This document shows, piece by piece, positions 31,863 to 49,636 of a stretch of 64,000 nt of DNA. The translations under genes were made by a program, and so were the position numbers. Location: positions 32,001 through 96,000 of the IMG/VR virus record IMGVR_UViG_3300044213_000170, one strand, 5' to 3'. The notes below the pieces were generated by a model, which was not told the DNA's origin, did not search any database, and saw nothing but the letters and a program-made list of their open reading frames with translations. Positions within the stretch are counted from its first letter, which is position 1, and the number at the start of each line of letters is the position of its first letter. The DNA is from a virus.

Positions 31863-32286
31863 AATTTACACTTGTTTCGTTGATGCGATAAATGGTAGCA
31901 CCATTTTTCAAATGGAATCTACGAGCCAATTCTGTCGGTGGACTTAATGTTACAAATTGTTTTACTCCGGGCATTTCAGATTTAATTTGTAATAAAACTT
32001 TCCTAAGTAATTCTTGTCCGGCACCTTTGGTGTAACTCCATATAGTGTAAAATACCATAGTGTCTAAATCAATCGACGGATTCAACAGATCGTCTTCATT
32101 AGACGGAACCCCGTGACACAACTTTGTACACACCATTGCTTTAACTTGATTATCATCGTCATCAAGTAATGCATAAACAAAGCGGTCAATGCCAAATCGG
32201 AATTCATGAGGTATATGCGGCCTTACTGGGTCCTCGTTGAGATGTTTTGATAACGGATCATCTATTCCGGTCAAAGTGTAAATCAT
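31849..32286 (-). CDS. GNAT-like protein
   Basis: FYTIWSY..GAG, VTLSP, FHLKNGA. Confidence 0.55.
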   Translation of the reverse strand: MIYTLTGIDDPLSKHLNEDPVRPHIPHEFRFGIDRFVYALLDDDDNQVKAMVCTKLCHGVPSNEDDLLNPSIDLDTMVFYTIWSYTKGAGQELLRKVLLQIKSEMPGVKQFVTLSPPTELARRFHLKNGATIYRINETSVNYEYK

Positions 32287-36325: not shown

Positions 36326-36931
36326 TTACATTGTAGGACCGTTACCGTTACGGAAACCGACTTCGCCGCCTTCTTCTCGAATACGTTTAATAACATCTTC
36401 AAATAAGATAGGTGCAAAGTCTGGAAGTTGTTCTACGCAAACACAATGGTAACGAACATCGTTCTCATCGCTGTACAAAATTTCTCCAGTCCTGGCATCA
36501 ACACCGCGAGCCCGCTTAACACGATTTGCGTGTAAGTGCCCGTGAATGTTGGTGCCAAACCGACCTAAGCTATCACTGTGTACAGGAATATGGCTTAAGA
36601 TCATACCGTCCATAACGTGGTAAGCACGAAGTTCACGGAAGTATTGCCTGTACTCGTCATCCTTAAAGATGTCGTGGTTACCACGGATTAAAACTTTGTC
36701 GCCGTTTAAGCGGGCTAATGTACTCATGGCCTTACGGTTGATAACAACGTCACCTAAGTGATAGACCTTGTCTGTGGGCTTGACTCTTTCGTTCCAAGCC
36801 TTGACCATAGCCTCATCCATCTCGGCAGGATCAGTCCAAGGACGTAATTTTGTAACACCGTCGTTACGTGTGAAGCGACATACACCTGCGTGACCAAAGT
36901 GTGTGTCGCTTACTAAAAATACACTAGGCAT
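36326..36931 (-). CDS. calcineurin-like metallophosphoesterase
   Basis: SDTHFGH, HLGD, GNHD, HGHLH. Confidence 0.9.
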   Translation of the reverse strand: MPSVFLVSDTHFGHAGVCRFTRNDGVTKLRPWTDPAEMDEAMVKAWNERVKPTDKVYHLGDVVINRKAMSTLARLNGDKVLIRGNHDIFKDDEYRQYFRELRAYHVMDGMILSHIPVHSDSLGRFGTNIHGHLHANRVKRARGVDARTGEILYSDENDVRYHCVCVEQLPDFAPILFEDVIKRIREEGGEVGFRNGNGPTM

Positions 36932-37608: not shown

Positions 37609-38277
37609 TTACCAAAGTAATTCAAAATTACCCGCTAATACTTTTTTGGTACTAGCAGCCTTATCTGTTCTGTGATCCTTAACAACATCGTCTTGGAATC
37701 TGTAGGTGCGGATTTTGTCGCCCCGCATACCAGATCCGACTTGTTGCTTTCTATCACTTGCTATTGTATTATTATACTGCCTTTTTACCAAATTGTCAAC
37801 CGTTTCTAAGATAGTACTTTTTGCTTGGTCTAGGCTGTTTTGACGGCTACGGCATTGTGCTGTGGCTGTTATGCCCGTAGGGATATGAGTTATCCGGCAA
37901 CTGTTTTGGTGTTTGTTGCGATGTTGCCCGCCGGCACCCGTGCCCGAATACCATTCTATTTTTAGATCAGCATCCATCACCTTTATCTTTGGTGCGCTTT
38001 GGTCTATGACTGCCACGGTCACGGTGCTAGTATGGACTCGACCCTTTCGTTCCGTTGGAGGTATACGCTGTATGCGATGTCCCCCACACTCGTTTTCTAA
38101 GCCGGATAAATCAGTACCCTCGACAAGTATATGAACTTCGCCAAGATATTCATTTATCAGGCGGGTAGTTCAGCCCTTGCTGTGTGCGAATTTAATGTAG
38201 GCCTGTGCCAAGTCTTTAACAAATAACTTACTGTCCTCACCGCCTTCTGCGGCTCTGATCTCCAATGTGCGTTTCAT
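37609..38277 (-). CDS. RF1-like peptide chain release factor lacking domain 1, with in-frame UGA at codon 36 (38170-38172)
   Basis: Manual translation MKRTLEIRAAEGGEDSKLF...HSKG*TTRL...ECGGHRIQRIPPTERKGRVHTSTVTVAV...GAGGQHRNK...RSRQNS...IRTY; ATG overlaps upstream TAA. Confidence 0.85.
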
Positions 38278-38501
38278 TATACTCTCTCCTTTTTAACGCG
38301 GCCTATTCGGCTTGCTTTGTTCCAATCGTATTTAACACCATCTGGGCAAAAACCGTCTTTAACAGAGTCTACTCCAAACTTACCAACAATTTCAAAGTTG
38401 TCACCGACAATTCTTACGAATTCGTTCATGTGCTTGGCAACATTCATTGCCTCATTCAAAGTTAAAACCTTTAAGGTTTCTTCCTTACCTATTATCTTAA
38501 A
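38277..38501 (-). CDS. hypothetical protein
   Basis: C-terminal part of ORF 38277..38585; start approximate (MFKIIG). Confidence 0.45.
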   Translation of the reverse strand, partial: FKIIGKEETLKVLTLNEAMNVAKHMNEFVRIVGDNFEIVGKFGVDSVKDGFCPDGVKYDWNKASRIGRVKKERV

Positions 38502-39646: not shown

Positions 39647-40063
39647 TTATTCCGAATAAGTCAACCCCAACACTTTCATCATCTTGTGCTTGACTAGCAG
39701 GTTGGGGCTACGAAAAGCCTCGGCATCCTGAAAGCCCATCATTACACCAACCTCTGCCACAGCACCACTGCGGCAAACACCGGCGTGGCAATGAACAACC
39801 ACATCACTACGATTAAGCAGAGCCTGCTTGAGTATCAACACCAAACTATTTGCTTGATGGTCATTGATTTTGAAGTCATCGTCAAAAGGATCATCACGTT
39901 CTGCATCTAAGAATTGAAACTGATGAATACTACCGAACTTGTGCAATGGTGTAGGGAACTCCATACACGGGTCAACAATTTGGATCAATACACTATTTTC
40001 ACCAACATTAATGTGATGACCTTTTGGTATATCTCTAAGTGCTACGTTTTGAATCCAAGGCAT
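39647..40063 (-). CDS. protein-tyrosine/dual-specificity phosphatase
   Basis: VVHCHAGVCRS (HCX5R). Confidence 0.88.
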   Translation of the reverse strand: MPWIQNVALRDIPKGHHINVGENSVLIQIVDPCMEFPTPLHKFGSIHQFQFLDAERDDPFDDDFKINDHQANSLVLILKQALLNRSDVVVHCHAGVCRSGAVAEVGVMMGFQDAEAFRSPNLLVKHKMMKVLGLTYSE

Positions 40064-49559: not shown

Positions 49560-49636
49560 TGGCGACCCCGGATGGATTTGAACCACCGACATTTGGTTTT
49601 GGAGACCAACGTTCTGCCAGACTGAACTACGGAGCC
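49560..49636 (-). tRNA. tRNA-Trp(CCA) with U11-A24
   Basis: D stem GTTC/GAAC, loop ctCCAaa. Confidence 0.95.

Follow-up and report, generated by a model that had tools for sequence, protein, structure and literature searches.

Why does a phage gene for a translation release factor carry a stop codon inside its own reading frame? The question is posed by a locus in the window, which is the 64,000-nucleotide (nt) stretch of positions 32,001 to 96,000 of the IMG/VR virus record IMGVR_UViG_3300044213_000170, and which sits in a 145.4-kb viral contig estimated to be 42% complete. The minus-strand frame from 38277 to 37609 contains a single internal stop among its 222 codons, a TGA at codon 36, hereafter the gate. 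A first-pass annotation, made from the letters alone, had described this gene and had ascribed its TGA to programmed read-through rather than to mutation or error. Comparison with relatives of the gene indicates that the locus is a real, strongly conserved recoding device with a built-in control point, and not a defect, because every relative found in its clade keeps both the stop and a hairpin behind it. The gene and the elements that define it are located as follows:

37609–38277, minus strand: short RF1-type release-factor gene, 222 codons including the in-frame TGA, with a TAA end (translation, Pfam, NCBIfam, AlphaFold)
38284–38290, minus strand: Shine-Dalgarno region, with AGGAG at 38290–38286, before the ATG (sequence inspection)
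38173–38277, minus strand: codons 1–35, ahead of the gate, encoding strand 2–11 and helix 14–33 of domain 2, including the conserved AEGGED tip region (selection, model, RF1 alignment)
38170–38172, minus strand: gate UGA, codon 36, in the context AAG GGC TGA ACT, aligned to the conserved Trp of RF1
38053–38061, minus strand: PPT (residues 73–75) at the position of the RF1 PxT motif, invariant in the family (alignment to T. maritima and E. coli RF1)
37924–37932, minus strand: GGQ peptidyl-tRNA hydrolysis motif (residues 116–118), invariant columns G116, G117, and Q118

The 222-codon gene with its one UGA and its coupled start was found in the sequence as it had been described. The ATG (38277–38275) shares one base with the TAA of the upstream open reading frame (ORF), forming TAATG at 38279–38275, and AGGAG lies 8 nt upstream of the ATG. 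The upstream ORF had no match in a Pfam scan. The mechanical ORF list for the locus contains a 137-residue ORF alone, which starts from an internal GTG at 38022.

The product of the gene is a class-I release factor of the RF1 type that lacks domain 1. Pfam matches cover positions 103–194 of the 194 positions of the PCRF model (3e-23) and the RF-1 domain (3e-18). The NCBIfam scores of the factor are 197 bits for RF1 (prfA), 122 bits for RF2 (prfB), and 44 bits for PrfH. The scores of 197 and 195 bits against the RF1 equivalog models are below the cut-offs of 400 and 423, and the matches start at model position 103–115, because approximately 105 residues of domain 1 are missing. The factor therefore does not have the four-domain architecture of RF1. 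The AlphaFold model of the factor has a predicted local distance difference test (pLDDT) value of 94, and can be superimposed onto domains 2–4 of ribosome-bound RF1 with template-modelling (TM) scores of 0.91–0.93. In an alignment with solved RF1 structures, the reading loop Q70...P73-P74-T75...H82-T83 corresponds to the RF1 loop residue for residue; RF2 would have SPF and Val where RF1 has PxT and its Gln/Thr readers of the third base. The protein families, the RF1 alignment, and the fold agree with the first-pass assignment to RF1 and with the loss of domain 1, whereas the likeness to PrfH drawn there stands as an analogy only, given the 44 bits against a PrfH cut-off of 167. From its RF1-type residues, the factor should read UAA and UAG, and not UGA.

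The gate occupies a defined position in the fold. In the alignment with RF1 structures, TGA-36 falls exactly, and without a gap, on the Trp of the KGW/RRW motif, which is the Trp position that had been proposed for it. The model places the stop between helix 14–33 and strand 37–44, both of which belong to domain 2, so that the 35 codons upstream of the stop are part of the fold. This arrangement bears on an explanation without any read-through, in which the locus would produce a 35-residue peptide and a separate C-terminal protein from an internal start, whether the 137-residue GTG ORF, an ArfB-like GGQ protein, or a re-initiation product. The presence of the ORF from GTG 38022 in the ORF list and the 180–187-residue products that public gene callers give for relatives are in its favour. 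However, there is no in-frame ATG, GTG, or TTG between the UGA and codon 86, and codons 37–85 hold the invariant PPT loop and are under purifying selection. Furthermore, the N-terminal strand and helix belong to the same fold in the model, and the stop aligns gap-free with one residue of RF1. We consider two separate products very unlikely.

Relatives of the gene were gathered by scanning viral and metagenome contigs with the factor and its most distant matches, which yielded several hundred loci. A blastn search against GenBank phages gave no matches, and tblastn gave only distant ones, of at most 39% identity, to phage-encoded or contaminating cellular RF1 or RF2. Codon 36 is TGA in all 81 loci of the first set and in all 109 distinct IMG/VR sequences, including members that are only about 45–50% identical. 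Taken together, the loci comprise 139 distinct genes with TGA at codon 36 and none with TGG, and they come from many independent metagenome assemblies. TGG in close homologues would have refuted the first-pass interpretation, and this condition does not hold. Elsewhere in the gene, Trp is encoded at two codons, both of which are TGG in every relative. The ratio of non-synonymous to synonymous changes per site (pN/pS) is 0.22 ahead of the stop (pS 0.69, 72 relatives) and 0.27 after it, and synonymous sites are close to saturation (pS 0.69–0.77). Purifying selection thus acts on both sides of the UGA, as the first-pass annotation had suggested checking.

The conservation of the UGA at codon 36 far beyond chance is confirmed by these counts. 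Since the codon is TGA and never TGG, although one A-to-G change would give a Trp codon, the stop itself is under selection, and such selection rules out a sequencing error, a recent mutation, or a pseudogene. A single TGG-to-TGA transition would suffice for damage of this kind; nevertheless, with TGA in 139 of 139 distinct relatives and with selection on both sides, we assign a negligible probability to a pseudogene, a sequencing error, or a genome-wide code in which TGA means Trp.

The last of these possibilities was examined across the contig. A greedy ORF set under the standard code (code 11) makes 90.4% of the contig coding, and TGA terminates 54 of the 181 genes (approximately 30%). The coding density of the contig is no better under code 4, in which TGA encodes Trp, and the very long ORFs are intact under the standard code. 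Open frames separated by TGA follow one another at 129–136 kb of the contig, but were rejected as evidence of reassignment, as they are the antisense strand of a 3419-residue gene. ARAGORN identified 34 tRNAs in the contig, including one tRNA-Trp (CCA). No tRNA with a UCA anticodon is present among these 34 or among the approximately 46 in each of two complete relatives, and an opal-suppressor tRNA was thus rejected as the reader of the gate. The use of TGA at the ends of 54 of 181 genes, the lack of gain under code 4, and the absence of a UCA tRNA led to the rejection of genome-wide reassignment as well. Because the standard code is used elsewhere and a UCA-anticodon tRNA is lacking, the release-factor TGA is a lone exception in a standard-code phage.

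The sequence behind the gate forms a conserved RNA structure, which consists of two parts:

38163–38169, minus strand: 7-nt spacer (ACUACCC) between the UGA and the hairpin, with raised synonymous conservation
38101–38162, minus strand: conserved hairpin, a probable stimulator of read-through, with a 5' arm at 38162–38141, a variable apex at 38140–38123, and a 3' arm at 38122–38101

The hairpin is approximately 60 nt long and starts 8 nt after the UGA. In the window it has a minimum free energy of −26.3 kcal/mol (z = −3.0), and the 78 nt after the UGA have a mean folding z of −3.5 in the 109 distinct sequences. The main stem typically starts at nt 8 after the UGA, or at nt 2–4 if a few extra outer pairs are predicted. 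The core of the hairpin was recovered by RNAalifold with compensatory pairs. In an alignment of 69 distinct sequences, 83% of the cells are paired, compared with 31–47% when the 3' partner is slid by 1–3 columns. The same alignment contains 56 cells in which both partners have changed, compared with 29 in shuffles, and none of 500 shuffles reached the observed number. The covarying pairs alternate between A-U, G-U, and G-C at two positions, change from A-U to U-A at one, and change from U-A to C-G and from A-U to G-C at two more. The apex is the least conserved part of the hairpin.

Synonymous sites carry the imprint of the same structure. Synonymous-codon identity is 0.8–1.0 in codons 37–45 and 53–59, which encode the two arms, compared with about 0.25–0.55 elsewhere, and reaches 0.80–0.90 in the spacer codons 37–38. 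Correspondingly, pS drops from 0.72 to 0.42 in codons 37–60. In divergent subclades, the stem is retained with a different sequence and a constant 8-nt spacing from the UGA. When the pair columns of the main clade are imposed on these subclades, only 6–13 of the 18 pairs are retained, because the register of the stem differs among them. The arms are as follows:

Main clade: 5' arm CCUGAUAAAU, 3' arm AUUUAUCCGG
L335: 5' arm CCUGUUAGAU, 3' arm AUCUAACAGG
L191: 5' arm CUGAAAGAU, 3' arm AUCUUUCAG
L210: 5' arm AUAAUUAAA, 3' arm UUUAAUUAU

The first-pass annotation had proposed a shorter, 25-nt hairpin at this place. It can form, and 92% of its positions are paired in the relatives, but the changes in it are one-sided and no better than in shuffles. 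The 25-nt hairpin shares its 5' arm with the longer stem and competes with it. As a stimulator it was rejected for want of covariation, and the 38162–38101 stem is supported instead.

A conserved hairpin at a short distance behind a UGA is also what a bacterial selenocysteine insertion sequence (SECIS) would look like, and insertion of selenocysteine at codon 36 would account for that arrangement. However, tRNA-Sec is absent from the contig and from two complete relatives, and no Rfam family matched at the UGA and hairpin site. The apex, where SelB would bind, is the part of the hairpin that varies most, and the residue at the gate position in homologues is Trp, Leu, Ile, Phe, or Ala, and never Cys. 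Selenocysteine is thus extremely improbable.

Read-through is recognized in comparative data by a stop conserved as a stop, purifying selection on one and the same frame before and after it, and a conserved cis element; all of these were found at the gate. Programmed in-frame recoding with a dedicated 3' structure is established by the comparative data.

The reader of the gate is probably a tRNA for Trp. Near-cognate tRNA-Trp is a known misreader of UGA in bacteria. With no cognate tRNA, and with Trp at the homologous position, it is the natural candidate, and the residue inserted at the UGA is most probably Trp. The phage encodes a tRNA of this kind:

49560–49636, minus strand: phage tRNA-Trp, anticodon CCA, with the D-stem GUUC/GAAC (U11-A24), candidate UGA reader and sole Trp tRNA in the 145-kb contig (ARAGORN)

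U11-A24 is the pair made by the Hirsh UGA-suppressor mutation. The Hirsh parallel for a viral tRNA-Trp has been drawn for Mimivirus (PMC3521657).

With moderate confidence, we favour a reading in which the factor is produced by programmed UGA read-through, most likely by tRNA-Trp, with a yield set by the competition of RF2 and tRNA-Trp at codon 36. The phage would thereby keep its own RF1-type terminator at a low level that rises as RF2 termination weakens or tRNA-Trp increases. Translation would begin at the ATG at 38277 and reach UGA-36 after 35 codons. There, host RF2 would terminate and release a 35-residue peptide, or alternatively the ribosome would insert an amino acid, most probably Trp delivered by near-cognate tRNA-Trp(CCA) of the host or the phage, and would stay in frame to complete the 222-residue factor. 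Read-through may be favoured by the hairpin 8 nt downstream, by the non-U base after the stop, and by the Gly codon in the P site. The yield of the full-length factor would depend on how RF2 and tRNA-Trp compete at codon 36, so that the gate would hold the phage terminator low and raise its output if RF2 termination weakens or tRNA-Trp rises. We infer both that the hairpin acts as a stimulator and that the gate works by this logic. The function ascribed to the gate is plausible, and the stricter proposal of the first-pass annotation, that production of the factor requires weak RF2 or abundant phage tRNA-Trp, may also hold. Because an RF1-type factor is not expected to recognize UGA, the gate would report the balance of RF2 and tRNA-Trp, and not the factor itself. 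It would therefore act as a sensor or a throttle, and not as a closed feedback loop of the prfB kind.

The base that follows the gate in the 109 distinct IMG/VR sequences is A in 76, G in 25, C in 8, and U in none; among the ordinary TGA stops of the same phage, T comes next in 12 of 49.

The wider family of the factor contains other gates. A search of 1.8 billion cluster representatives identified many calls of 180–187 residues that start just past the gate, and intact relatives of 217–236 residues, likewise without domain 1, that have W, L, I, A, or H at the gate position. The W in database proteins P0002, P0005, P0008, P0011, and P0016 may be encoded by TGG, or by TGA called under code 4; the intact relative L342, which is 64% identical to P0016, has W at the gate position under table 11. 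The metagenome scan distinguished four states of the site, in all of which the PPT loop is kept. The first is the TGA-36 clade, to which the window gene belongs. The second comprises intact genes with KGW, KGF, or RGL at the site. The third is a small separate clade with a TGA about 5–10 codons further on. In L350, L375, L396, L398, and L412, the later in-frame TGA is again behind a Gly or Ser codon, and L399 has two in-frame stops. In the fourth state, the N-terminal part is in another frame and is joined by a prfB-like +1 cassette. The cassette consists of the Shine-Dalgarno-like GGAGG, 3 bases, CTT, and then TGA (19 genes) or TAG (10 genes), followed by C or G, and its CTT is the Trp-equivalent codon. 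The loci of this clade lie among L351–L420 (for example L366, L370, L392, and L395) and carry CTT-TGA-C/G or CTT-TAG-C. A quick tree of the family places the frameshift genes together in a single group, with TGA and TAG versions intermixed between close relatives; its deep nodes are weak, and no order of events was drawn from it. Sister clades thus carry recoding gates of other kinds, either at this site or close by, which argues that gating itself is under selection.

Several observations weigh against a sensor of RF2 and tRNA-Trp. The tetranucleotide TGA-A is present at 18 of 49 ordinary TGA stops of the phage, and alone does not make a stop leaky. The tRNA-Trp genes of the complete relatives differ at the Hirsh position, as both genes of one relative have A24 and the sole gene of another has G24; given the latter, the Hirsh-like tRNA is evidently not a fixed part of the device. 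Finally, the gate of the frameshift clade flips between UGA and UAG among close relatives while the PPT loop is unchanged, which is a poor fit to a dedicated RF2 sensor and fits a factor that reads both codons. This interchange keeps alive the alternative that the short factors may read more than the codons of RF1.

If the factor itself recognized UGA, and perhaps all three stops, high levels of it could halt translation of its own gene at codon 36, and read-through would take over at low levels, in the manner of prfB. Such autoregulation is suggested by the recurrence of recoding gates in three of the family's clades, all placed at this site or close to it, and by the full prfB cassette in one of them, where the alternation of TGA and TAG with the same PPT loop is simplest if the factor reads either codon. 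Release-factor genes published as autoregulated provide precedents, namely prfB (PMC12421855) and Mimivirus R726 (PMC3521657). However, the residues of the factor are of the RF1 type throughout, including the Pro and Thr of PxT that reject G at the second position and the Gln and Thr that accept A or G at the third, and the NCBIfam score for RF1 is 197 bits, against 122 for RF2. We therefore regard autoregulation by the factor as rather unlikely.

The comparative evidence for read-through serves equally well for a fixed throttle that senses nothing, in which a constant few per cent of read-through would keep a potentially toxic factor without domain 1 very low, or fix the ratio of peptide to factor. 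The stable hairpin and the fixed context even suggest a hard-wired efficiency. Nevertheless, a weak ribosome-binding site or promoter would be a cheaper way to low expression, and yet a strong AGGAG is present; moreover, three kinds of gate recur at the site, suggesting that the stop codon carries information. A throttle of this kind is in our judgement unlikely.

Read-through governed by RF2 and tRNA-Trp, the reading that we favour for the window gene, may be one case of a broader pattern, which we propose only tentatively. The short RF1-like family of large phages may always be routed through a stop codon, and its shared role would be that of a virus-encoded sensor of host termination capacity, which turns on a terminator to replace or compete with the host release factors as these fail during infection. 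In a stronger version of the proposal, the stop specificity of the family would be altered or broadened, all of the gates would be autoregulatory loops, and the family would include a natural factor that reads UGA on an RF1 scaffold.

The complete relatives of the phage have genomes of 320–364 kb with about 46 tRNA genes, and the gated gene is embedded among these. In G001, the gated gene (G001:C1:293773-294084) is located between tRNAs at 293533–293604 and 295416–295490, inside the tRNA region; its counterpart in the window is on the same strand as the first tRNA gene and 1.9 kb away from it. Three complete relatives were scanned and have one RF-1-domain gene only and no Pth homologue (no PF01195 match).

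The release-factor coding sequence also contains an embedded promoter. At 37771–37799 of the window, on the minus strand and within codons of about 160–170, there is a perfect sigma-70 consensus (TTGACA, 17 nt, TATAAT; 12 of 12 positions). The promoter is located toward the 3' end of the coding sequence, facing the downstream genes. Of 72 distinct relatives, 49 keep TTGACA and 54 keep TATAAT, and the two occur together at the correct spacing in 41. Synonymous conservation peaks at the codons of the promoter, and the amino acids between the hexamers are variable.

Genes around the release factor include a calcineurin-like metallophosphoesterase (36326–36931, minus strand) and an ORF resembling Cys-based dual-specificity or tyrosine phosphatases (39647–40063, minus strand), the latter with weak Pfam matches below the cut-off. 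No match to RtcB was found among seven neighbouring ORFs that were scanned. The complete relatives each encode an amber-suppressor tRNA with a CUA anticodon, which ARAGORN labels 'Pyl', at a site far away from their main tRNA region (L187 392–466, which is G001:C1:174391-174465; L190 409–483 in G002; and G003:C1:187515-187586). This tRNA was not found in the 145-kb contig of the window. In G001 it adjoins GroES-like and NAMPT-like genes, and in one complete relative its neighbourhood contains no obvious TAG-gated gene. In G002 (L188 3533–3607), ARAGORN additionally predicts a tRNA with the four-base anticodon tttc, which may be similar to +1 frameshift suppressors or may be a prediction artefact.

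Among known systems, the window gene is similar to bacterial prfB, which encodes RF2, in that an in-frame UGA breaks a class-I release-factor gene at an early point, and the full protein can be made only by recoding (PMC12421855). The prfB gene is autoregulated by a programmed +1 frameshift at CUU UGA C with a Shine-Dalgarno-like element (PMC12421855). Only the sister clades resemble it in this respect, with GGAGG-N3-CTT-TGA-C at the codon adjacent to the gate. The TGA-36 gene, in contrast, stays in frame 0, has GGC before the stop and a hairpin after it, and lacks both the CUU slip codon and the Shine-Dalgarno-like element. Its gate is in domain 2, whereas that of prfB is near the N-terminus of domain 1, and its RF1-type product is not expected to read its own UGA, so that a feedback loop is not obviously closed.

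Mimivirus R726 and Megavirus mg280 encode a viral class-I release factor that is complete only if a conserved UGA is read through (Jeudy et al. 2012, PMC3521657). Trp was proposed as the inserted residue, and the viral tRNA-Trp has a Hirsh-like adenine in the D arm (PMC3521657). The phage shares with R726 a UGA-gated viral release factor, and has a tRNA-Trp with U11-A24. R726 differs in that it is of the eukaryotic/archaeal eRF1 type, needs a frameshift as well as read-through within a single gene, and is not reported to have a downstream hairpin (PMC3521657). The phage gene encodes a bacterial RF1-type factor without domain 1, belongs to a bacteriophage, and has a single read-through site with a conserved hairpin.

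In the RNA phage Q-beta, the coat protein is extended to A1 by tRNA-Trp read-through of UGA; UGA-A contexts are leaky in E. coli, and a purine after UGA favours leakage. Common to both phages would be low-frequency decoding of UGA by a normal tRNA-Trp in a bacterial host, which gives an extended protein. Whereas Q-beta extends a complete protein to a minor second product, the short product of the window gene is a 35-residue fragment and the read-through product alone is predicted to be functional. The phage gene additionally has a conserved, structured 3' element. Pseudoknot-stimulated read-through takes place in murine leukaemia virus (MuLV). In alphaviruses and other eukaryotic viruses, a stop and a short spacer are followed by an extended 3' RNA structure that stimulates read-through (PMC3159437). 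As in the phage gene, the structure was revealed by enhanced conservation of synonymous sites (PMC3159437). Those cases are eukaryotic and serve polymerase expression. We know of no conserved hairpin-assisted UGA read-through in a double-stranded DNA bacteriophage, and a full-text literature search found no paper on an RF1-type phage factor gated in this way.

The factor is similar to PrfH (RF-H) and ArfB in lacking domain 1 and keeping the GGQ domain. However, PrfH is without the normal stop-reading motifs and pairs with RtcB, whereas the phage factor keeps the RF1 reading loop and scores 43.9 bits against the PrfH model TIGR03072, the cut-off of which is 166.65. ArfB consists of the GGQ domain and a tail only. 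Stop-codon-recoded phages carry RF1 or RF2 beside tRNA genes as a translation module (Borges et al., bioRxiv 10.1101/2021.08.26.457843). They differ from the present phage in the genome-wide reassignment of stops in late genes and in release-factor genes that are reported to be in the standard code and ungated (bioRxiv 10.1101/2021.08.26.457843), whereas the phage described here uses the standard code over 145 kb and has a single gated gene.

Eukaryotic and RNA viruses provide well-documented examples of programmed read-through, but very few clear and conserved cases are known from bacteria or double-stranded DNA phages, and fewer still have a dedicated downstream RNA structure. The comparative support for the present case is unusually strong, as it includes more than 100 diverged sequences, compensatory changes in the stem, and two-sided selection, and the gene product is itself a termination factor. 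The sequence needed is about 110 nt long, and could be used as a compact element for read-through in bacteria that responds to RF2 or tRNA-Trp. A factor without domain 1 is also a natural experiment on the roles of domain 1 and of RF3 recycling in termination. The gate and the prfB-like sister clades together point to a capacity of large phages to gauge or adjust termination in the cells that they infect. The principle of a release-factor gene gated by its own kind of signal, known from RF2, would thus extend to RF1-type proteins.

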